IMG/VR virus record: IMGVR_UViG_2541047877_000006 | Length of the DNA stretch: 53,577 nt | Direction: 5' to 3' (one strand) | DNA from: a virus | Taxonomy: Duplodnaviria > Heunggongvirae > Uroviricota > Caudoviricetes | Part shown: piece by piece, positions 16,421-26,381 of the stretch | Position numbering within the stretch: position 1 is the first letter of the stretch | Layout of the letters: every line of letters starts with the position of its first letter | The notes under the pieces: generated by a model | What the model was told of the DNA's origin: nothing | What the model saw: the letters and a program-made list of their open reading frames with translations, nothing else | Database searches by the model: none | Translations under genes and position numbers: made by a program

Positions 16421-16541
16421 TAATGGCGCTTTTTGTCTTGTTTGGGGGTATCCATTTTGTATACTTCAAGCAAACAAAATGCTCTTTAAAAATCCGGCAG
16501 CGCTGAAATGCGTAGAAATCACCTGAAAAGGAGAGAGCATT

Positions 16542-16718
16542 ATGTCTTTTGATGATTACCAATGGCATGACGACTATGAACGAGAAAGCGTCATGCGTGC
16601 AATGTGCAATGTATGCAGCACGAAGAAAGGAGGCTGTAACGAGTGCAACGAATGCTTAGAACATTGGCTAAGGGCCGGACACGCCGAAAGGCTGAACGAA
16701 ACAGAGAATCAAAAATAA
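16542..16718 (+). CDS. small Cys-rich protein (58 aa)
   Basis: AAGGAGAG SD; CNVC...CNECNEC cysteine cluster. Confidence 0.4.
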   Translation: MSFDDYQWHDDYERESVMRAMCNVCSTKKGGCNECNECLEHWLRAGHAERLNETENQK

Positions 16719-16732
16719 TCGGGGTGGTTTTT

Positions 16733-17338
16733 ATGCAAAACCCTAAAAAACCCATAAGACGCCGTTGCAAATGCTGCGGCGTTTTTTTTGAGCCTAAATA
16801 TCACAATCAAACGTGGTGCAGTGACGAATGTCTGGAAGAACTGAAGTTTGATCAGCTATGCCGCGACCGTGAGAAGGCTATGAAGGCTATGGAACGGAAG
16901 AAACGCCGTGATAGCCAGCGTGAAGAACGCAACCGGAAGCGTAAACAGTTAAATCCGCGTAGTTATTGGATCAAACAAGTTCAAAATGTATTTAACGCCT
17001 ATATTCGCGAACGTGACGCGCGGTTGCCCTGTATATCCTGCGGGACTTACTACGGTGAGCAATGCGGATGGGATGCGGGCCATTATAGGACGGTTGCCGC
17101 CGCCGGACACCTTCGCTTTAACGAGGATAATTGCCATAAACAATGCAGGCACTGCAACCAGACATTAGACGGAAATATAGGAGGATATCGCCCGGCACTG
17201 ATTCGAAAAATTGGCCTCGCCAGGGTGGTAGCACTGGAGAACAACAATGATACGCATAAATGGACGATCGCAGAATGTAAGGAGCTAATAAACATCTATC
17301 AGGCGAAATTGGACGCCTTAAGGAGAAAGGCAGCATGA
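16733..17338 (+). CDS. ninG: recombination protein NinG (Rap)
   Basis: RRRCKCC...WCSDEC, PRSYWIKQ, LPCISCG, WDAGHYR, LRFNE.N.HKQC as in lambda NinG. Confidence 0.85.
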   Translation: MQNPKKPIRRRCKCCGVFFEPKYHNQTWCSDECLEELKFDQLCRDREKAMKAMERKKRRDSQREERNRKRKQLNPRSYWIKQVQNVFNAYIRERDARLPCISCGTYYGEQCGWDAGHYRTVAAAGHLRFNEDNCHKQCRHCNQTLDGNIGGYRPALIRKIGLARVVALENNNDTHKWTIAECKELINIYQAKLDALRRKAA

Positions 17339-17736
17339 ACGAATATACATTTAGCCTACCTTACCCGCCATCGAACAATAAATATTACCGGCATTCGCGC
17401 GGTTTCCACTATATAAGCAAGGAAGGTAAGGAATACAGGGAGCAGGTAAAAGACATTATAAAACTGCTTAATCTGAAAATTAATCTTAAGTGTAGGCTAT
17501 CAATAACGGTGTATATTGCACCGCCAGATAACAGACGCCGCGATATTGACAATGTAGGGAAGGCATTATTTGACGCTATAACTTATTCCGGTTTTTGGGC
17601 TGATGATAGCCAGGTTGACGCAATGAAATTTGTCCGCTGCCGGAAGGTAAAAAGAGGGCGATTGTTTATCAAGGTACGCGAACGCGGCGACCTGTTACCG
17701 GATATTAACGAATACTTGACTAATATGTGGTGGTAA
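17335..17736 (+). CDS. rusA: RusA Holliday junction resolvase
   Basis: LPYPPSNNKYYRH...RRRDIDNVGKALFDAIT..GFWADDSQV matches RusA family. Confidence 0.9.
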   Translation: MNEYTFSLPYPPSNNKYYRHSRGFHYISKEGKEYREQVKDIIKLLNLKINLKCRLSITVYIAPPDNRRRDIDNVGKALFDAITYSGFWADDSQVDAMKFVRCRKVKRGRLFIKVRERGDLLPDINEYLTNMWW

Positions 17737-17738
17737 CA

Positions 17739-17921
17739 ATGAAAAACGAAATTAAAGATCTGCAAATAGATATTCAGCGCGACGAGCATGATTTGGAAAC
17801 TGTACGACAAATACAGGTTTTCCACATGCGAGAATTGCTTGCGCTTAAAGAGCTTGAAAGAAAGCTAGTGCAATCAATATCTGATCGCAAAAGACTGGTT
17901 GCACGTTACGGGGGTAAATAA
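17739..17921 (+). CDS. hypothetical coiled-coil protein (60 aa)
   Basis: ORF from ATG 17739; no domain recognised. Confidence 0.4.
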   Translation: MKNEIKDLQIDIQRDEHDLETVRQIQVFHMRELLALKELERKLVQSISDRKRLVARYGGK

Positions 17922-18643
17922 TGAATCTGGAATCTATTCTTAAATTCCACCTCCCAAAATCACCGCGTTTGTCAGATGAAAGCCGGGGCACGTCCCCAGA
18001 CTCGCTTAATACTACTGATGCACTAACCGCAGCAGGTATGGCGCAATCGCGCGTAGAGCTTGGTTATAGCGCTTTTTTAGGGAAGATGGAACTATCACAA
18101 GCCGAAAAACATAGGGCCGTAGTTTTGCTTACAGAGCGTTTAAGGGCTATGGCGAAAGATTACGAATACGTGATGGAGTTAAACGAGGATCAGCGCAATG
18201 GACTTATTATTCTTGTTGCCGTTTTCGCGTTTCGGGATTATTGCCAGAGTGCGGCGACCGAAAAAGTTTGCCCTAAGTGCGGCGGATATAAATTTACGTT
18301 TGACGACTACGGAGAAAAACACCTTTGCAAAAAATGCAAGGGGCATGGAAAAGTTCGCAATCATTGTAAACGATGCAAAGGGCGCGGCGAGATACCGGAT
18401 AAAGCAGCCAGTGAAGCAGCGGAAATGCCAGTGTTCAAAACGTGCCAGCATTGCGGCGGGCGCGGGTACTCGCGTTTCCCTGTAGATCTTGTCCGGCGTG
18501 CGGTTAATCAGCTTGTATTTCCGGTAAGCCGATCAACATGGTGGAAAAAATACCGGGTTTTCTATGAAGACGCCATTGCTGAATTGTTCAAGGAAGAGGC
18601 GCGGGCTGATAACGAAATTAAACGAGTTACGCGGGGTGAATGA
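17921..18643 (+). CDS. Q-like late antiterminator candidate with DnaJ-type zinc finger
   Basis: 240 aa; four CxxCxGxG repeats (CPKCGG, CKKCKGHG, CKRCKGRG, CQHCGGRG); follows ninG-rusA as Q does in lambdoids. Confidence 0.4.
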   Translation: MNLESILKFHLPKSPRLSDESRGTSPDSLNTTDALTAAGMAQSRVELGYSAFLGKMELSQAEKHRAVVLLTERLRAMAKDYEYVMELNEDQRNGLIILVAVFAFRDYCQSAATEKVCPKCGGYKFTFDDYGEKHLCKKCKGHGKVRNHCKRCKGRGEIPDKAASEAAEMPVFKTCQHCGGRGYSRFPVDLVRRAVNQLVFPVSRSTWWKKYRVFYEDAIAELFKEEARADNEIKRVTRGE

Positions 18644-18846
18644 TGGATAAACTGGAAATAAACGATCAGTTTGCCGTTATCTTGTTCGAAGATAAAACAG
18701 GCGGCGCATGGTGTAAGAAAGTCACTGGTGCTGAAGCACGCTTAATATTGGGTATGGCAAGCGCGTTAAATGATGGCGAATTGCCAGCCGTGCCAATTAA
18801 GCCAGTACATATTTACGGACGGAGTAACGACAATGAAAATACTTAA
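18640..18846 (+). CDS. hypothetical protein (68 aa)
   Basis: ORF; no domain recognised. Confidence 0.4.
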   Translation: MMDKLEINDQFAVILFEDKTGGAWCKKVTGAEARLILGMASALNDGELPAVPIKPVHIYGRSNDNENT

Positions 18847-19180
18847 CATTGGGTGGCTGTATTGCGAAAACTGCGACGACGATGGCATGGTCGTAAAAAC
18901 CGAAAAAGGTTGCGGCCTCATGCTGTATCAAGGTGATAAATTCGTTTGTCCTCGCTGCGGCGGCGGTGGTGAGATAGAAATTGTTAATGATATTGCTACA
19001 GCATATAAGCCATCTCGCATTGCCCTTGATGAAAAAATAAAAATTCATCCTTATTTATTACAGCAAATTATCGATCACGTATCGGCAGCCGCAATCTATA
19101 GCGGTAACAATTATCAGCGAGAAATGAACGTCAAACGTGCGATTGAGCAGTATTTCGAAGGTGACGACAATGAAGCCTAA
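18833..19180 (+). CDS. zinc-ribbon hypothetical protein (115 aa)
   Basis: CENC...CPRCGGGG cysteine pairs; GGAG SD. Confidence 0.4.
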   Translation: MKILNIGWLYCENCDDDGMVVKTEKGCGLMLYQGDKFVCPRCGGGGEIEIVNDIATAYKPSRIALDEKIKIHPYLLQQIIDHVSAAAIYSGNNYQREMNVKRAIEQYFEGDDNEA

Positions 19181-19439
19181 ATTAAAAGAGCATGAATTTA
19201 GGGATCTCATAAACGGAATAACCGATAAAGCTAGGATGTACTCAAATGCGCAACAGTTAAGGGCGGTTATAGTTACGGAATTAATGAAATACATTGAGCC
19301 ATGCGGACCAGGCGACGAAATGACTATGGATAAGGCCATCAAGCGCCGTTCGGCTGATTGGTCGGTTAGTAACACTGGATTAACCGGATACATTGAAGGC
19401 TATAACGACTGTTTACAGGATCATGGCAATGAAAAGTAA
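19170..19439 (+). CDS. hypothetical protein (89 aa)
   Basis: ORF; no domain recognised. Confidence 0.4.
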   Translation: MKPKLKEHEFRDLINGITDKARMYSNAQQLRAVIVTELMKYIEPCGPGDEMTMDKAIKRRSADWSVSNTGLTGYIEGYNDCLQDHGNEK

Positions 19440-19644
19440 CCGCAAGCGCCTTGTAAGGGCATACGATAAAGCATTAAAGGCTTTTGATGATCTGCGACAC
19501 AATAAGCGCCAGCGCCGCAAATGGGCGCGTATGCTTGTTTATGAGTGGCATTATTCTGATGCTTTCATGGAAAGTGCGCCGCTATTAACACAGGAACAAG
19601 CCGACGAAGTAGCTAACGATAACGTTTATTATATGATGTGGTGA
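19423..19644 (+). CDS. hypothetical basic protein (73 aa)
   Basis: ORF; start ambiguous (19423 or 19429). Confidence 0.35.
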   Translation: MAMKSNRKRLVRAYDKALKAFDDLRHNKRQRRKWARMLVYEWHYSDAFMESAPLLTQEQADEVANDNVYYMMW

Positions 19645-19648
19645 TAAT

Positions 19649-20014
19649 ATGCAAATAATCATTGATTATCTTTGCCATGCTGCAAATACGCTTTTTGGTT
19701 TTTATCAACAACCATTCCTCAAAGAATGGGACGAAATGCTTAATGACATCATTGATAAAGAGTTAATAGTTGAGGTTGGCGAGCTAACGATAAAATTTAA
19801 TTACGAAGGCAAAGAATATGATATATGGGTAGGTAACAGATGGTACGCATACGGGCATATTTATTCAATTGGCGGCAAATACATTAAACGTAGCCAGGAG
19901 TTCAGGCCGCGATTCCGCACAATGCGCCGCCTGCGTGACCTGCATATGAATATATTTGAAAATCAGGAAGCGTGTGAACTATTCAAAATCTACGGAGATA
20001 AATCATGGAACTAA
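19649..20014 (+). CDS. hypothetical protein (121 aa)
   Basis: ORF; no domain recognised. Confidence 0.45.
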   Translation: MQIIIDYLCHAANTLFGFYQQPFLKEWDEMLNDIIDKELIVEVGELTIKFNYEGKEYDIWVGNRWYAYGHIYSIGGKYIKRSQEFRPRFRTMRRLRDLHMNIFENQEACELFKIYGDKSWN

Positions 20015-20235
20015 AAATCTGGCAGGGTATCGACGTAGTTGATAATGAATTGTCTATGTTCGCCACTAACGGGAAACGCGTGGTGATCGCTACATGGACG
20101 CGCAACCATGATGATATAGCTTTTCGTCGCAAGGCTGCGGAGTGGCTTTTCTCTGATGAAGGCTACACGATGAATATCTCCCAGCTTGCCAGAATGAAGG
20201 ATGAAAAGCTGGTTGATAGTTACACAACTGCATAG
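20005..20235 (+). CDS. hypothetical protein (76 aa)
   Basis: ORF overlapping upstream stop. Confidence 0.4.
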   Translation: MELKIWQGIDVVDNELSMFATNGKRVVIATWTRNHDDIAFRRKAAEWLFSDEGYTMNISQLARMKDEKLVDSYTTA

Positions 20236-20245
20236 TGGGGCAAAT

Positions 20246-20479
20246 ATGTGTATCTATGAACACAAGCGGGATAAAACCCGCTTTTTTGTTCGTGCTGGCG
20301 TGGCTTACCAGTATCACGACTGCGGATATATCGAGGCGCTTGCTTACGATCTGGACTTCGAACAAGAAAAAGAATGGTTCGATTTCAAAATTTACCGGAA
20401 GCGTAAACCGACGCGCGACGAGCGACACGCTATCCGGGACTTTTTAATCAGCATAGACCGCTGGGAGACAGAGGAATGA
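20246..20479 (+). CDS. hypothetical protein (77 aa)
   Basis: ORF from ATG 20246 with GGGG SD. Confidence 0.4.
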   Translation: MCIYEHKRDKTRFFVRAGVAYQYHDCGYIEALAYDLDFEQEKEWFDFKIYRKRKPTRDERHAIRDFLISIDRWETEE

Positions 20480-20763
20480 GAGCGAAGAAAACAGCAGATC
20501 AGAAAGCGTTAGTTATCACTACAACTGATGTGTCGTTATTCACGAAGGGTGAAGAAATAGATCTTAAATTACTTTTCGGCATGTTTGAGCCACACGAAAA
20601 GCCGTGGTTCGTGCATGAAGACAAACAGGGAAATATGCGCGTAGTAGTGCCGGACAAAAACAGCGACATATTTTTTGCTATTCCAGACCCGTTACATGAC
20701 GGTGAATTGCTGGCGGTATTGTTGATCGCTGATGCTGTTACTTATAAAGGGAAAGAAATATGA
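20476..20763 (+). CDS. hypothetical protein (95 aa)
   Basis: ORF with 4-nt overlap to neighbour. Confidence 0.4.
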   Translation: MRAKKTADQKALVITTTDVSLFTKGEEIDLKLLFGMFEPHEKPWFVHEDKQGNMRVVVPDKNSDIFFAIPDPLHDGELLAVLLIADAVTYKGKEI

Positions 20764-20987
20764 AAGTTAAATTCTTGCACGATCACGGCTACCCATCATT
20801 AAAACGCGTGGTAGGGGAAACGGTAGACGTTGTTCATTCTGATGATGTGACCTGCGTCATTTTGGGTAAAGACCTTATCGCTCACGGTGCTGATGATTAC
20901 TACATTAACCCGGCGTGGTCATATACGTTTAGCCTGGGCGACTTCGTAGGCGATAAGGGGCGCGGCTTGCAAGTAGTCGAGGGTTAA
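20760..20987 (+). CDS. hypothetical protein (75 aa)
   Basis: ORF with 4-nt overlap to neighbour. Confidence 0.4.
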   Translation: MKVKFLHDHGYPSLKRVVGETVDVVHSDDVTCVILGKDLIAHGADDYYINPAWSYTFSLGDFVGDKGRGLQVVEG

Positions 20988-20991
20988 TATC

Positions 20992-21240
20992 ATGGACGTT
21001 TACGAAGATTTATACCTTCAAACAAATACCAGCACTTTTTATTTTTTGAAAAACGGCGTCGTATATCGCAGCGACAACGGGGTGATAATGAAAGAGTGTT
21101 TATTTAAGCGTAAAGACCTACTCGAAGATCTGGTTTTTGCCGGGATATTTCGTAAACGTCCGGCTAACCTGGAAGAAGAAATGTTGATTGAGGTTATTAA
21201 ACATGAAAATCAGGGTAAGTTATTTCCGGGCGAAAGATAA
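20992..21240 (+). CDS. hypothetical protein (82 aa)
   Basis: ORF; no domain recognised. Confidence 0.4.
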   Translation: MDVYEDLYLQTNTSTFYFLKNGVVYRSDNGVIMKECLFKRKDLLEDLVFAGIFRKRPANLEEEMLIEVIKHENQGKLFPGER

Positions 21241-21454
21241 GGCAACAGGAAAGCGGATGGCGATCCTGGTTAATGAAGCTAATTATATGTTTGTGCTTCA
21301 GCCGTGGTGCATAGCTGACTATAACGATGATTATCGCCGTCACGGTGCGCGGGGTGCTGTAGGGATGAAGGGATGGCAACCGCGTGACATGGAAAACTAT
21401 TGTGAATGGAAATTGATAGCAAAATATACGGTCGATTATAAAGGTGTTTTCTAA
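21203..21454 (+). CDS. hypothetical protein (83 aa)
   Basis: ORF from ATG 21203 with GAGG SD. Confidence 0.4.
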   Translation: MKIRVSYFRAKDKATGKRMAILVNEANYMFVLQPWCIADYNDDYRRHGARGAVGMKGWQPRDMENYCEWKLIAKYTVDYKGVF

Positions 21455-21660
21455 TGTACGTCAGATGCACTGAATCAAAATCATCATGCTTTGAGGTTGG
21501 CGGAATATATACCGTAGATCACCTGACTGGTGATGAACTTAACACCCAATACATTAAAGACGACCTCGGCGACGCGTGGCGCTATTGGGATTGCTACGCG
21601 CGTGGACACGTTACCAGTCAGTTTGGTACGGAACCGATCGCGCGTTTTGTTAAGTGGTGA
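21454..21660 (+). CDS. hypothetical protein (68 aa)
   Basis: ORF; start overlaps upstream stop. Confidence 0.4.
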   Translation: MYVRCTESKSSCFEVGGIYTVDHLTGDELNTQYIKDDLGDAWRYWDCYARGHVTSQFGTEPIARFVKW

Positions 21661-21774
21661 GGCGTTGGACAACCATAAATGTGATCTGTATCACAATGTA
21701 TACGAAATGGCATTGTTTCGACAGTGCCATTTTGTTATATATAAGCCACGGAAAGACGGAGGGGAGGCAAGAAG

Positions 21775-21915
21775 ATGAGCGCTAACGCTAAATATCCGGC
21801 ATGGGTTTTTGAGTTATACGCCCGCTACTTTGAATTGCTGGCACAAGGTGAAGAAGCATTAAGCATTGACGAGTACGCGGAGTGCTTAGGGTTTAAAGGA
21901 GACGAAGAAGCATAA
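21775..21915 (+). CDS. small hypothetical protein (46 aa)
   Basis: GGAGGGGAGG SD; followed by GGGGCCggatGGCCCC stem-loop. Confidence 0.3.
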   Translation: MSANAKYPAWVFELYARYFELLAQGEEALSIDEYAECLGFKGDEEA

Positions 21916-21958
21916 AACACGGGGCCGGATGGCCCCATCAAATCAGAAGGGTGTAATC

Positions 21959-22252
21959 ATGAAAAGCGCTAAATTTATTGCTTGCTGTTTTGTTGAAGTT
22001 CCCTATAACGATGCGTTCTATCACGCTACTTTTACCGATAAGAATGGGAATGATCACGTTATTGTCGGCAAGCGTGGTGACTGGCTTTATATAACTGATG
22101 ATGATTGCATTTTCACTAAAAATCAGTTGCAAAAACTGGTTATCGGTAAACAGGAACAGGAAGGCTATCAAATCATCCCGGTGGAAAGACTGAAAAGGGA
22201 GCAGAGAATTAAACGCGCTCAAGAGGAATTAAATAACATAAAGGGTATGTGA
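21959..22252 (+). CDS. hypothetical protein (97 aa)
   Basis: ORF from ATG 21959; no domain recognised. Confidence 0.4.
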   Translation: MKSAKFIACCFVEVPYNDAFYHATFTDKNGNDHVIVGKRGDWLYITDDDCIFTKNQLQKLVIGKQEQEGYQIIPVERLKREQRIKRAQEELNNIKGM

Positions 22253-22253
22253 T

Positions 22254-22508
22254 ATGAAAACAATCAGACTATGGCGCGGCAATAGCCGACTTGATGGTGA
22301 GTACATCCGCGTGATTGAAGATGTTAATCGTGGTCGGTTTTATGAATTGGCATACAGCGAAAAAAGGGAGAAAGAATATCTGAACGAATCGACCCCTATG
22401 TGGCGTAAAGTGGCTGGCCTTGCCTCAATTCTGCGCCACGGGTTTTATGCAGATCATAACACGCTAATTGATGCCGAACTGGTGACAACTCTTTACGAAG
22501 GAGAATAA
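22254..22508 (+). CDS. hypothetical protein (84 aa)
   Basis: ORF; no domain recognised. Confidence 0.4.
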   Translation: MKTIRLWRGNSRLDGEYIRVIEDVNRGRFYELAYSEKREKEYLNESTPMWRKVAGLASILRHGFYADHNTLIDAELVTTLYEGE

Positions 22509-22511
22509 ACA

Positions 22512-22835
22512 ATGAGTAAATTTATCAGCGTTAAGGTTTTCCGTGGCAATTTTCCAGAAGATAAAGAAATTGGACAATTCGCAGGTGAACGTGGCGTATG
22601 TTTCCGTGTAGCTACTGAAGACGATGCGCACGTTAAATGCTTTCACGTATCTGAACCGCCTTTTAATGCAGACCATCTTGAAGACCTGAATAGAATTAAA
22701 AGCCTTATTTTTGCCTATCTGGCGTTCCCTGGCATAGCTGATGCTGATGTTGAATTGGTTGGGGCCGAACTGGTGGCAGAATACAAAATGACTGAAGGCG
22801 AAAACGGAGGGGTGGAAATTGAGCGCATCAAATAA
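22512..22835 (+). CDS. hypothetical protein (107 aa)
   Basis: ORF; no domain recognised. Confidence 0.4.
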   Translation: MSKFISVKVFRGNFPEDKEIGQFAGERGVCFRVATEDDAHVKCFHVSEPPFNADHLEDLNRIKSLIFAYLAFPGIADADVELVGAELVAEYKMTEGENGGVEIERIK

Positions 22836-23070
22836 GCTGTATAAAGTCAGGTGTAAAGGCGAATACCCTGGCTTTACGGTTGGTTGCGAATATCTGGGCC
22901 ACATTGGGTACGGCCCTTTCGGTGAGTTGGGAATGAATACGATTGACGACGACGGCGACAGCAGGACGCTTGATCTTGATAGCGATGATTTCGAATACAT
23001 CCCGCCAGTCACTTACCGCGTCGTCGATGATTTCCTGGCTGAACATGAAGACGAGGATGATGATGATTGA
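22819..23070 (+). CDS. hypothetical acidic protein (83 aa)
   Basis: ORF, probably TTG start with GGAGG SD; C-terminal EHEDEDDDD. Confidence 0.35.
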   Translation: MSASNKLYKVRCKGEYPGFTVGCEYLGHIGYGPFGELGMNTIDDDGDSRTLDLDSDDFEYIPPVTYRVVDDFLAEHEDEDDDD

Positions 23071-23257
23071 ATGCCTTATCGCTGTGATTGTTTTGCTTTA
23101 TATCGCTGGCGCGATCCTGATGTCATGTTTTATTAAGTTTAGCGGCGCTGAACCTGGTGGCCTTGAGATTCCTTTTTGGCCTGTGACTGTGTTTATCGCT
23201 TTCTTCGACGCTACGGCAGAGCAGATCAATCGAGCTATTAAGGAGCGCAAGAAATGA
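23057..23257 (+). CDS. small membrane protein (66 aa)
   Basis: MMMIECLIAVIVLLYIAGAILMSCFIKF...; two hydrophobic segments. Confidence 0.4.
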   Translation: MMMIECLIAVIVLLYIAGAILMSCFIKFSGAEPGGLEIPFWPVTVFIAFFDATAEQINRAIKERKK

Positions 23258-23433
23258 TTGAAGATGGGGTGTACGCAACAGTAGTAGACGGGCTGTTTTA
23301 CCGCGTAGAAGGTGATGATATTCGCATCCGCGTTGGCGGTGGTGAGTGGGTAGCGCCAATCATTAAGACGACGCGAGAAACAATTAAAATATTTCTTGAT
23401 GCTGGTGAACTGGTGAGGGTTAGCGACCTATGA
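23254..23433 (+). CDS. hypothetical protein (59 aa)
   Basis: AAGGAG SD; paralog of next ORF (MIEDGVY vs MNEIEDGIY). Confidence 0.4.
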   Translation: MIEDGVYATVVDGLFYRVEGDDIRIRVGGGEWVAPIIKTTRETIKIFLDAGELVRVSDL

Positions 23434-23606
23434 ACGAGATCGAAGATGGTATCTATTTACATAAGGTATTTAACATCGTCTATTTGGTTAGAGGTGAATC
23501 GGTGATGATAAGACCTGATGATGATCCTTATTGGGAATTAAGCGACATGGATCGGTGGCATATGCAAACATTGCTTGATAATGGCCTGATATATAGAAAG
23601 CCGTAA
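23430..23606 (+). CDS. hypothetical protein (58 aa)
   Basis: ATGA-coupled to previous ORF; paralogous N-terminus. Confidence 0.4.
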   Translation: MNEIEDGIYLHKVFNIVYLVRGESVMIRPDDDPYWELSDMDRWHMQTLLDNGLIYRKP

Positions 23607-23622
23607 AGCCGTATTTGTTGGG
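23602..23622 (+). repeat. direct repeat copy 1 (TAAAGCCGTATTTGT core)
   Basis: About 20-bp near-identical copy at 23852-23872; the two bracket ORF 23629-23856. Confidence 0.5.
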
Positions 23623-23628
23623 GGGAAT

Positions 23629-23856
23629 ATGGAAGAAATGGTTTTACTGTCATCAATATGGCATCGGTTCGGAACTGAAAAAGGATACTCACCTGCTTGC
23701 TGGCTGGATAGTAAAAGCGGAAAGGAGTATCAAAACGAGTGCGAATTTAGAAGGGAGTGGCGAGGTGGTAAGGAAGTGCAAGGATATTTTGCACCAAAAC
23801 ACGTTGCCGCCAAATACAAAGAATGGCTTGTGCGTTTGCTTGGCCCTTATCGTTAA
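23629..23856 (+). CDS. hypothetical protein (75 aa)
   Basis: GGGGGG SD; flanked by direct repeats. Confidence 0.4.
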   Translation: MEEMVLLSSIWHRFGTEKGYSPACWLDSKSGKEYQNECEFRREWRGGKEVQGYFAPKHVAAKYKEWLVRLLGPYR

Positions 23857-23872
23857 AGCCGTATTTGTAGGG
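23852..23872 (+). repeat. direct repeat copy 2 (TAAAGCCGTATTTGT core)
   Basis: Matches 23602-23622; overlaps -35 of candidate late promoter. Confidence 0.5.
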
Positions 23873-23893
23873 CGTAAACAAACAGATTAAAAT
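23865..23893 (+). promoter_or_regulatory. candidate late (pR-prime-like) promoter
   Basis: -35 TTGTAG, 17-nt spacer, -10 TAAAAT; about 30 nt upstream of terminator preceding lysis genes. Confidence 0.35.
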
Positions 23894-23921
23894 ATTCTCT
23901 AACAATGCGAAACTGTAACTA

Positions 23922-23943
23922 CCCGGCCCAGCGCCGGGTTTTT
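23922..23943 (+). terminator. rho-independent terminator (tR-prime-like) upstream of holin
   Basis: CCCGGC ccagc GCCGGG hairpin followed by TTTTT. Confidence 0.65.
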
Positions 23944-23963
23944 GCTTTGTTGGAGGTAAATCT

Positions 23964-24164
23964 ATGTTCGACAAAATACGGGCGGCGTGCGCTTATGTAA
24001 CAGGGACCGTAACCGCTTTTTTTGGTGCGATAACCATTAATGACGTTGCCGTCTTTGTGGGTATCTTATCAACCATTGGCACATTTGCCGTTAACTATTA
24101 CTTCAAATCACAGGAGAACAAGCGAGCGCAAGAGGAACACGACGCACGAATGGGGAATAAGTAA
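23964..24164 (+). CDS. class II holin (pinholin S21-like)
   Basis: 66 aa, two TM segments, charged C-terminus; GGAGG SD; precedes SAR endolysin. Confidence 0.8.
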
Positions 24165-24165
24165 C

Positions 24166-24657
24166 ATGATTAGCCAATCGCTAAAGAATAAAATTATTGC
24201 TGCGGCGGCTGGTGGGGCTATCGCTATTGCGGCTGTGATGGTTAAACCATTGGAAGGCGTGGAATATGATCCTTATCGTGATGTTGTCGGTGTATGGACT
24301 GTTTGCCACGGTCACACCGGAAAGGACATCATGCTTGGTAAGACTTACACGCAATTTGAATGCGATGCTTTGTTGAACAAAGATCTACACAAAACCGCAA
24401 AAGCGATTGACCCATATATCAAAGTCGAAATATCAGATTTTACCCGCGCAGCACTTTATTCATTCGCCTATAACGTAGGCGCAACCAACTTCAAAACATC
24501 AACCTTATTAAAGCTACTTAATGACGGCAAGAAATCGGAAGCGTGCGCACAGCTTAAACGCTGGGTATACGCTGGCGGTAAGAAGTGGCAAGGCCTGGTT
24601 AACCGCCGTGATATTGAATATGCCGTTTGCGAATGGGGTGAAACATGGACAAGGTGA
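24166..24657 (+). CDS. SAR endolysin (GH24 lysozyme)
   Basis: N-terminal signal-anchor-release segment [17 protein letters not shown]; catalytic [23 protein letters not shown]. Confidence 0.9.
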
Positions 24658-25115
24658 AGACGTTAATCATCGCCGTTGTTGTTTGCATTATTGCCGGGCT
24701 TACCGCCGTAACGTGTTATTACCAGGGTGAGGCGGCAAGGTTACAGGAAGAAGTCACGGTGACGAAAGGCGCACTAAAAACAGCAAGTAACACTATCCAG
24801 CAGATGAAGGAGCGAAACGCCGAACTGTCAAAACTTGATAAGAGGTATCACGATGAGATTAAAGCTATCAGATCTGACATTGCCGATCTTCGCGCTGGCA
24901 TTGATAGCGGTGCTATCAGGTTGCACGTCAACGCCGAGCCAGTGTACGTGCACGACGCCACCGGAACCGCCAGCAGCATTAATGGAGCCACCTGTAGACT
25001 TACTGCCAGTGCTCAATCAAATTATCTATCCCTCAGAGAACAACTAAAAGAGAAAGACGCGAAGATCACCGGATTACAGGACTACATCAAAACGCAGTGC
25101 ATACGCAAAGAATAA
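24645..25115 (+). CDS. Rz: i-spanin Rz
   Basis: N-terminal TM, coiled-coil periplasmic domain; embedded Rz1 in +1 frame. Confidence 0.8.
24853..25047 (+). CDS. Rz1: o-spanin Rz1 lipoprotein
   Basis: Embedded in Rz; lipobox LSGC; Pro-rich mature part. Confidence 0.7.
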   Translation: MRLKLSDLTLPIFALALIAVLSGCTSTPSQCTCTTPPEPPAALMEPPVDLLPVLNQIIYPSENN

Positions 25116-25383
25116 CAGCGCGCGGACGTGTCGCCGTTTCCGCCAGCCAGCCATAACCGGGCCAATCCTTCCCGCGAGCGACAGCGGAAATTCAAAAACA
25201 CGTAATACCGGATCAACAGTCCCATTAACAGGTCGGGCGCTACCTGGGTAGAAGAAAGCGCCATTCACCAATTTTATAAAATTCTGGAAACGGTACTGAT
25301 GAAGCGCCGTTCTCAGTGTTTTATGTCATTCCTGCCGCTGTATAAACAGGAAGTAAAAGCAAACCAGACAGGAGATTATTCTG

Positions 25384-25958: not shown

Positions 25959-26027
25959 ATGTTTACTTTTCTGTTAGGCGTATTTGTTGGCATAGCTGCC
26001 GCTGTGATCTTGATATACGGACATTGA
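25959..26027 (+). CDS. micropeptide 1 of tandem array (22 aa, single TM)
   Basis: MFTFLLGVFVGIAAAVILIYGH; GAGGG SD 5 nt upstream. Confidence 0.45.
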   Translation: MFTFLLGVFVGIAAAVILIYGH

Positions 26028-26031
26028 TATT

Positions 26032-26136
26032 ATGGATGCTTACATCATCGCCGGATTAATCGGCGTTTCTGTGTTTCTTGTGGGTTCTATTATAGTTGCG
26101 CTGATAAACGTATATATCAAGTATTTGGTGGGGTGA
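26032..26136 (+). CDS. micropeptide 2 of tandem array (34 aa, single TM)
   Basis: MDAYIIAGLIGVSVFLVGSIIVALINVYIKYLVG; starts 5 nt after previous stop. Confidence 0.45.
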   Translation: MDAYIIAGLIGVSVFLVGSIIVALINVYIKYLVG

Positions 26137-26141
26137 AAAAT

Positions 26142-26216
26142 ATGATTGACCCGCTAATTATCCTTTCTGCCTGCGTCGCTGTATGGCTGGCGATCATGAT
26201 ATTCATTGAAAGCTGA
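26142..26216 (+). CDS. micropeptide 3 of tandem array (24 aa, single TM)
   Basis: MIDPLIILSACVAVWLAIMIFIES; GGGGTGA SD. Confidence 0.45.
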   Translation: MIDPLIILSACVAVWLAIMIFIES

Positions 26217-26227
26217 AGGTATCCACA

Positions 26228-26308
26228 ATGAACGCATACGAAATGCTATTGCTGGTGGCTGTTATTACAGTTATTGCCGTAGATGTTTATCGGGAGTTTA
26301 AAAAATGA
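26228..26308 (+). CDS. micropeptide 4 of tandem array (26 aa, single TM)
   Basis: MNAYEMLLLVAVITVIAVDVYREFKK; GAAGG SD. Confidence 0.45.
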   Translation: MNAYEMLLLVAVITVIAVDVYREFKK

Positions 26309-26373
26309 AATGGCTTGATTTCTTTTTCCTGATCGTTGCGATTGTTCTCACTATGACCGCGCTTGCTCAATAG
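26305..26373 (+). CDS. micropeptide 5 of tandem array (22 aa, single TM)
   Basis: MKWLDFFFLIVAIVLTMTALAQ; ATGA overlap with ORF 4; GGGAG SD. Confidence 0.45.
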   Translation: MKWLDFFFLIVAIVLTMTALAQ

Positions 26374-26381
26374 GTGAAAGC

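Follow-up and report, generated by a model that had tools for sequence, protein, structure and literature searches.

A lambda-family Q antiterminator gene and its predicted late-control site lie 5.2 kb apart in an mEp021-like coliphage

In a viral DNA stretch of 53,577 nucleotides (IMG/VR record IMGVR_UViG_2541047877_000006; Caudoviricetes), referred to here as the window, a gene in the position of a Q antiterminator is followed by an array of small open reading frames (ORFs) and then by a compact module of putative late-control elements directly 5' of the holin gene (Table 1). Positions 17000-25200 match seven deposited phages, mEp021, mEp010, mEp013, mEp044, mEp515, mEp554 and MagusPhagus, at 86-89% identity, which places the window by sequence among the mEp021-like (mEpimmI) coliphages. 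These phages have been described as Nus-dependent, non-lambdoid temperate coliphages with an N-like antiterminator, Gp17, acting with three nut sites, and a "Q-lambda-like" protein is mentioned in the same work (PMC11893012). The ORF list and Pfam give the order NinG, RusA, a 64-amino-acid (aa) ORF and then the Q gene, and the module together with the holin is present in 32 of 5,426 complete E. coli genomes.

Sequence searches and structural modeling identify the gene at 17921-18643 as encoding a lambda-family Q antiterminator, an ordinary member of a well-studied family, with predicted antitermination activity. A preliminary description of this DNA had left membership in the Q family in doubt and had proposed a comparison with the Q families of lambda, 82 and 21. 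Carried out as a Pfam profile search, this comparison gave a match to the lambda family (PF03589, 102 bits against a cutoff of 26.7, in two stretches), and neither Q21 (PF06530) nor Q82 (PF06323) appeared among the Pfam hits at E <= 0.1 (family accessions as listed in PMC9388147). The family phrog_127, "anti-termination protein Q-like", matched residues 1-238 at 8.4e-78, and phmmer matched lambda Q (7UBM_Q) over its full length at E 3.6e-39, through residues 1-114 and 148-238 of the query. An AlphaFold2 (AF2) model built on 37 homologues, with a predicted local distance difference test (pLDDT) score of 82.8, displayed a four-helix body with a helix-turn-helix (HTH) and an arm, as in Q-lambda. 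The top eight Foldseek matches in the PDB were all Q-lambda chains (E 2e-14 to 3e-7; target-normalised template modelling (TM) score 0.63-0.77), and no non-Q chain matched the model significantly, the next one having E > 1. The profile match, the full-length match to lambda Q and a fold shared with Q-lambda chains only thus settle the earlier doubt.

The N-terminal 44 residues of lambda Q form a torus at the RNA exit channel (PMC9388147). Residues 1-44 of the window protein are 59% identical (26/44) to this segment, compared with 30-36% for the body and arm, and in the pairwise alignment G39 and T206 are conserved and V6 is replaced by isoleucine. This distribution of identity fits a conserved mechanism at RNA polymerase and NusA combined with a diverged DNA site; because the DNA-binding parts are the ones with low identity, the sequence bound by this Q is probably unlike that of lambda.

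The gene had also been described as having four CxxCxGxG repeats, taken as the signature of the DnaJ cysteine-rich domain. Three of these are exact (CKKCKGHG at aa 136, CKRCKGRG at aa 149 and CQHCGGRG at aa 175) and the first, CPKCGGYK at aa 117, is CxxCxGxK. The DnaJ assignment did not hold. Such motifs are native to the zinc-ribbon arm of Q-lambda, and lambda Q carries two of its own, CRDCHGTG and CGRCKGVG, which align with motifs 3 and 4 here. Motifs 1 and 2 reside in an insertion at the base of that arm, which provides a second Cys4 ribbon. All eight cysteines are invariant in the 37 homologues, from Escherichia, Citrobacter, Pantoea, Serratia, Pectobacterium and Xenorhabdus, with a loop of variable length between the first two CxxC motifs; a Q with four CxxC motifs is therefore a common long form of the family. 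Were the protein instead a DnaJ-like zinc-finger chaperone, or another non-Q protein with a superficial likeness to Q, its four CxxCxG motifs and its match to PF00684 (DnaJ cysteine-rich; E 6e-06) would be expected. However, this match scores 26.8 bits, under the cutoff of 32.7, no J-domain hit was obtained in Pfam at E <= 0.1, and the homology to lambda Q extends over the full length and the fold. We rejected this reading on these grounds, and consider it extremely unlikely. Clear non-Q homology, which the preliminary description had named in advance as refuting a Q assignment, was not found.

Between the Q gene and the lysis genes we found 21 small ORFs, mostly with PHROG matches, in line with the earlier count of about 21, and the Q gene lies 5.3 kb from the lysis cassette, an interval as large as had been suspected. 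The first ORF of the block overlaps the Q stop codon (ATGA), and the Q stop is overlapped by the next ORF in all relatives, so there is no room for a promoter unit adjoining Q. PHROG families of unknown function are matched by 19 of the 21 ORFs at E <= 1e-26, with most matches spanning the full length; the match of ORF 18770-19180 is weak (1.3e-05), and ORFs 20992-21240 and 21929-22252 matched nothing in the PHROG search. Across 47 distinct relatives the block comprises 8-28 ORFs from 41 families, 3 of them universal and 15 found in <20% of the genomes. The two copies of the direct repeat TAAAGCCGTATTTGT bracket an extra ORF, 23629-23856, which is found in only 9 of the 47 relatives. It resembles a recombinational gene insertion, with a short sequence at the junction that supplies the -35-like hexamer of the module as well. 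Given this variable family content and the repeat-bracketed ORF, the block is an actively exchanging accessory region. Because the block ORFs lie upstream of the late switch, we infer that they belong to the early operon antiterminated by the N-like Gp17. In this phage group nutR2 is positioned just downstream of the methyltransferase gene (PMC11893012). The window carries the boxA-like sequence TGCTCTTTAA of a nutR2-type site 5' of ninF, ninG, rusA and Q, and this site would render early transcription resistant to termination across Q and the ORF block. Within 16478-16520 (+), downstream of the methyltransferase gene, the boxA-like sequence is followed by a small hairpin whose loop is of the GAAA type.

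The module at 23865-23943 has the promoter, pause and terminator layout of Q-lambda-family phages and is the best-placed site for late control, a location that the preliminary description had offered as one of two possibilities. With a predicted transcription start at 23900/23901, the element AACAAT would fall at about +1 to +6, as AACGAT does in lambda, and it is separated from the terminator by 14 nt. The terminator was found by a terminator scan (RNA fold -21 kcal/mol, z -2.2), corresponds to TERM_5 in mEp021 and to an annotated terminator in mEp010, mEp013 and mEp044, and is the sole part of the module annotated in the GenBank records and in the 2025 paper on the group (PMC11893012). The terminated leader RNA is expected to measure about 40-45 nt. 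Of 52 relatives, 50 have the 28-nt module core in exact or almost exact form, and the contigs of the other two end before it. Conservation starts abruptly at 23876: column identity is 0.977 at 23876-23887, compared with 0.79 and 0.65 upstream. Over the non-coding positions 23876-23963 mean column identity is 0.95-0.98, equal to that of codon positions 1 and 2 of the holin (0.97 and 0.98) and higher than that of position 3 (0.90). In lambda, the Q-binding element lies between the -35 and the -10, and the conserved spacer sequence AAACAAACAGAT occupies this position here. No boxA/boxB-like nut site was evident in the module sequence.

We next compared this arrangement across Q-lambda-family loci, taking as a composite TAnnnT followed after 5-7 nt by AAYRNT, with a terminator within 110 nt. 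In 66 of 73 family loci whose Q is <43% identical, the composite starts 26-65 bp (median 58) after the Q stop. In the 47 distinct relatives it lies 1,927-6,725 bp (median 5,389) after the Q stop, always directly 5' of the holin, and in the window it starts 5,244 bp after it. Only two other composite hits were found in 244 kb of distinct Q-to-module intervals, so its occurrence is far beyond chance. The -10, spacer and pause element of the window (TAAAAT, ATTCTCT, AACAAT) correspond to TAAATT, TGACTC and AACGAT in lambda and P22, to TAATTT, TATCCC and AACGAT in HK225, and to TAAGAT, TTTTCC and AACGAT in SfV. SEN34 likewise has the matching layout of a -10, 6-7 nt, AAC(A/G)NT and a terminator. 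The related sites of SE1Spa and Eho59 read TATCAT, AACCC, TAACAGT and TATAGT, CCTA, TAACACT, respectively.

A sister clade, whose Q is 48% identical, displays the same separation, with the composite 2,984-3,157 bp after the Q stop and the order NinG, RusA, a 61-aa ORF, Q, 11-13 small ORFs and holin. Its module, TATAAT-TCCCTC-AATAAT followed by 17 nt, a terminator and the holin, keeps the architecture with a different sequence, which argues for a function of the module rather than shared neutral ancestry. The sequence TAAACAA recurs in the sister clade, at almost the same position as here. Each of the relatives has Q alongside the module, and so does the sister clade. Q variants of 240 aa and 242 aa occur in mixed combinations with two -35/spacer variants of the module. 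The sister-clade genomes (Logan contigs L060-L063) are ~52-53 kb in size, encode a 257-aa Q and carry a HAD/PNKP-like phosphatase gene in the accessory block. A separate scan of species-representative genomes with GATTAAAATATN{4,5}AACAATGC for a module near Q returned 21 hits, all of them chance occurrences in unrelated metagenome-assembled genome (MAG) contigs that lack a Q and share no homology outside the seed; this approach was discarded.

Collectively, these comparisons suggest that the same Q most likely acts in trans at 23865-23943, 5.2 kb from its own gene. The preliminary description had posed a choice between a very large Q-to-lysis interval and late control at 23865-23943 by a different factor; the interval and the site are not real alternatives, and both parts are partly true.

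A promoter closer to Q would alter this assignment. The sequence TAAACT-N7-AACGAT at 18648-18666 places a -10-like hexamer and the exact lambda AACGAT 5 nt after the Q stop; if this were the real late promoter, the 21 ORFs would be Q-dependent late genes and the terminator at 23921-23943 would be overridden, as with stx genes. Chance alone would yield ~7 such patterns per strand of the window, and one so close to Q amounts to roughly a 1% coincidence. However, the motif lies inside coding sequence (MDKLEINDQ), reads TAAGCT (3/6) in most relatives, and is absent where the first ORF differs, including in the viable mEp021 and mEp044, whereas the holin-proximal module is found in all; moreover, in the window it lacks both a -35 and a following terminator. 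The candidate was rejected for these reasons. We regard a Q-proximal late promoter as highly improbable, and judge the motif to be coincidental or a relic.

Several observations weigh against Q acting at the holin-proximal module. The -35-like TTGTAG, at 3/6, is at background level (2-3/6 in the clade and 1/6 in the sister clade), and canonical late promoters of the Q-lambda family have a -35 of 4-5/6 in 52 of 56 cases. Most relatives carry TTGTAG or TTGTGG at this position, but 12 of 50 have TCGCGC, and the sister clade has AGCGCT. The -10 at 23888 has no extended -10 TG. With the -35 at background and no extended -10, the strength of the promoter is uncertain and an extra factor is possibly needed. 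Within the close clade, where the module is almost invariant, we detected no covariation between Q and the spacer. The 2025 paper on the mEpimmI group describes no late promoter (PMC11893012). Finally, Gp17-modified polymerase arriving from upstream could pass the terminator at 23921-23943 by itself, leaving the contribution of Q uncertain. A promoter scan of the window likewise left the TTGTAG/TAAAAT site unlisted. The coordinates given earlier for the candidate promoter TTGTAG/17 nt/TAAAAT before the holin terminator were correct, but its hexamers are not beyond chance as a pair and the -35 is not conserved. Since it is not, promoter function is argued from the -10, which is better here (5-6/6) than in canonical late promoters (mostly 3-4), from the pause element and from the comparative evidence.

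The weak -35 is also the starting point for two other interpretations. The module may have no promoter of its own, its substrate being early-operon polymerase that has passed Q and the 21 ORFs; Q would then load on sigma70-containing elongation complexes paused at TAAAAT/AACAAT, distant from any promoter, or the site would end early transcription except by antiterminated polymerase. A -35 at chance level in both the clade and the sister clade, set against the good -35 of canonical late promoters, is in keeping with this, as is the location of the module at the downstream end of an uninterrupted + strand array of genes beginning upstream of Q. Against it, polymerase should retain little sigma70 several kilobases away from a promoter. 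In vitro, the Q of phage 82 engages polymerase at a promoter-distal sigma70-dependent pause, but NusA antagonised this promoter-distal engagement in the same study (PMC4914094). The -10 is, moreover, invariant at 5-6/6 and has the exact promoter-to-pause spacing of the 66 of 73 canonical loci, features that a promoter would need but a pure pause site would not. We therefore consider a module without a promoter unlikely. A related proposal, to which we also assign a low probability, is that the late site of the clade and sister clade, lacking a -35 and moved to the end of the early operon, needs Q (with or without another factor) for initiation too, or has Q loaded at a promoter-distal pause onto sigma70-containing polymerases coming from the early operon; late expression may then have no constitutive pR' as its starting point. 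If true, such promoter-distal loading would be a natural case of an engagement so far demonstrated only in vitro, for phage 82 Q.

In the second interpretation, a late promoter at 23865-23943 is run by a factor other than Q, for example an activator replacing the -35 contact or Gp17. The lack of a -35 is what an activator-dependent promoter might show, and the Q gene is not adjacent. Nevertheless, a pause element at +1 to +6 with a close terminator is the signature of the Q-lambda family and has no role in simple activation; no nut-like element is evident in the module, Q is conserved along with it, and no other antiterminator family was detected by Pfam among the neighboring genes scanned. 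Control by a non-Q factor thus appears very unlikely. The different factor envisaged in the preliminary description gained no support from the comparison, and the same Q acting in trans is the simplest explanation.

The action of Q-lambda involves a Q-binding element and a sigma-dependent pause element, together with NusA and a nozzle (PMC9388147). For Q acting in trans at the module, we infer promoter activity, pausing, Q binding and read-through from the sequence and propose the following course. Q and the 21 ORFs would presumably be transcribed from the early right promoter by polymerase modified by the N-like Gp17. At the module, sigma70 RNA polymerase would start at about 23900/23901 from the TAAAAT promoter and pause early, the -10-like AACAAT at +1 to +6 being bound anew by sigma region 2. 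If Q is absent, transcription would stop at the hairpin at 23921-23943 and leave a transcript of about 40-45 nt. Q, expressed from the early operon 5.2 kb upstream, would diffuse to the module, bind the conserved spacer at 23876-23887 and load onto the paused polymerase with NusA, its N-terminus forming the nozzle. The Q-modified polymerase would then pass 23921-23943 as well as further terminators downstream, and so transcribe the lysis, packaging and structural genes.

This arrangement resembles the lambda Q/pR'/qut/tR' system (PF03589; PDB 4MO1, 7UBJ-7UBN) in many respects. The window protein is a full-length homologue with the nozzle N-terminus, the HTH body and the Cys4 arm; the Q gene follows ninG/rusA; a -10, a pause element at about +1 to +6 and a terminator precede the holin; and Nus dependence is shared. 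By contrast, Q lies ~80 bp from the promoter in lambda and 5.2 kb from it here (1.9-6.7 kb in relatives), with a variable array of small early-side genes in between. The -35 is TTGACT in lambda and unrecognisable here, the leader is 194 nt in lambda and about 40-45 nt here, and the 33-residue Cys4 insertion in the arm is an addition of the window protein. P22 (gene 23/PR'/t-late) belongs to the same Q family and has PR', qut and tR' annotated, with an annotated start at locus position 1902 and a terminator at 1932-1960. As this terminator begins at +31, a short leader such as that predicted here has precedent. P22 differs in having its promoter ~45 bp after gene 23, a consensus-like TTGACT -35 and a Q of 207 aa with two CxxC motifs.

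The long-form Qs, including SE1Spa Gp23, Eho59 gp73 and many "antitermination protein Q" entries of Enterobacterales prophages, share the eight invariant cysteines and are, at 36-42% identity, the closest Qs outside the clade. Phages with such a Q have the pause element TAACA(G/C/A)T, not AACGAT. Their module lies 42-65 bp after Q, compared with kilobases here, and the first CxxC loop is much shorter in the window protein. A multi-kilobase accessory insertion between Q and the lysis cassette also occurs in Stx phages (Q, pR', tR', tRNA and stx, S). There, the insertion lies downstream of pR'/tR', and its genes are thus Q-dependent late genes (compare PMC7547250). In the window, the insertion lies upstream of the module, on the early side. 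Relative to the canonical cassette (PMC9388147), the -10, pause element and terminator are present here, and both a promoter unit adjoining Q and a recognisable -35 located 16-18 bp upstream of the -10 are missing. As far as we found, the clade-wide separation of Q from its putative site by a variable early-side block, the apparently -35-less late promoter and the predicted ~40-45-nt leader are new.

The textbook and structural view is that of a Q with an adjacent pR'-pause-terminator unit; here, the two halves lie 2-7 kb apart yet have been kept together in evolution. The human gut commonly harbors mEp021-like coliphages, and annotation pipelines that seek pR' beside Q would miss the site in these phages. 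The early-side block of 8-28 small genes of unknown function is a reasonable region in which to search for host-takeover or anti-defense genes. Furthermore, a -35-less promoter with a strong -10 and a very short leader would offer a natural test case for the promoter context of Q-lambda-type loading.

Table 1 Positions of the features discussed in the text within the 53,577-nt window
Feature	Position	Strand	Remarks
boxA-like TGCTCTTTAA of nutR2-type site	16480-16489	+	From sequence; 5' of ninF/ninG/rusA/Q
NinG	16643-17338	+	Upstream of Q
RusA	17335-17736	+	Upstream of Q
Q antiterminator gene, Q-lambda family	17921-18643	+	240 aa; Pfam, PHROG, phmmer, AF2/Foldseek
33-residue insertion in arm (aa 115-147)	18263-18361	+	Gap relative to lambda Q; extra pair C117, C120, C136, C139
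Zinc ribbon equivalent to that of lambda Q	18365-18457	+	C149, C152, C175, C178 align with lambda C118, C121, C144, C147
Block of 21 small ORFs	18640-23856	+	ORF list; 46-136 aa each, packed or overlapping
15-nt direct repeat TAAAGCCGTATTTGT, copy 1	23604-23618	+	Two copies, 0.02 expected
15-nt direct repeat TAAAGCCGTATTTGT, copy 2	23854-23868	+	Overlaps -35-like hexamer
-35-like hexamer TTGTAG (3/6)	23865-23870	+	Not conserved; 17-nt spacer to -10
Conserved promoter spacer AAACAAACAGAT	23876-23887	+	Putative Q-binding element, by position
-10 hexamer TAAAAT (5/6)	23888-23893	+	Identical in all 26 distinct clade variants
AACAAT, -10-like element of putative sigma70-dependent pause	23901-23906	+	ATTCTCT (7 nt) after -10; invariant in relatives
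Intrinsic terminator (tR' equivalent)	23921-23943	+	7-bp stem ACCCGGC/GCCGGGT at 23921-23939, 5-nt loop, T5 at 23939-23943
Ribosome-binding site GGAGG	23952-23956	+	5' of holin
Class II holin, first late gene	23964-24164	+	PF16080 4.5e-16, phrog_20
Endolysin	24167-24657	+	PF00959 3.6e-43; start by analogy with mEp021 gp47
Rz spanin	24645-25115	+	PF03245 1.1e-24

Further observations were made within the Q gene and the ORF block. A CII-type site (TTGCN6TTGC), as in antisense control of the lambda PaQ or P22 a23 type, was not found inside Q, and its window-wide count was at chance. A GC-rich antisense hairpin at 17983-17999 (- strand), 62-78 nt into Q, lies at roughly the position of the P22 a23 terminator, with a weak T-tail. 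Inside ORF 20201-20479, an intrinsic-terminator-like hairpin, AAGCGGGATAAAACCCGCTT followed by TTTTTGTT at 20264-20283 (+), is predicted in mEp554 too and would stop unmodified polymerase before the late module. ORF 20992-21240 (+), of 82 aa, is one of the three families shared by all 47 relatives. The homologous protein of mEp021, gp41, is listed as a "virion structural protein" by mass spectrometry, yet it is located on the early side of the putative promoter. The gp41-type gene has been described as mislocated and as distantly similar to an RNA-binding translational repressor (PMC11893012). Directly 5' of the module, ORFs 23254-23433 and 23430-23606 (+; 59 and 58 aa) both match phrog_15318 at E ~1e-32, representing a tandem duplication.

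Downstream of the holin, a second module-like match, TAAAAT-N6-AACGGT, occurs at 25277, after Rz, with no convincing terminator following it. Eight back-to-back mini-ORFs (22-34 aa, each with one hydrophobic helix) lie at 25959-26610 (+), in the gap between the small terminase gene and a 190-aa ORF that follows Rz, and the homologous stretch of mEp021 is unannotated. Rz itself contains, out of frame, an Rz1-like lipoprotein ORF at 24835-25047 (+) whose signal peptide ends in LSGC, the usual embedded spanin pair.

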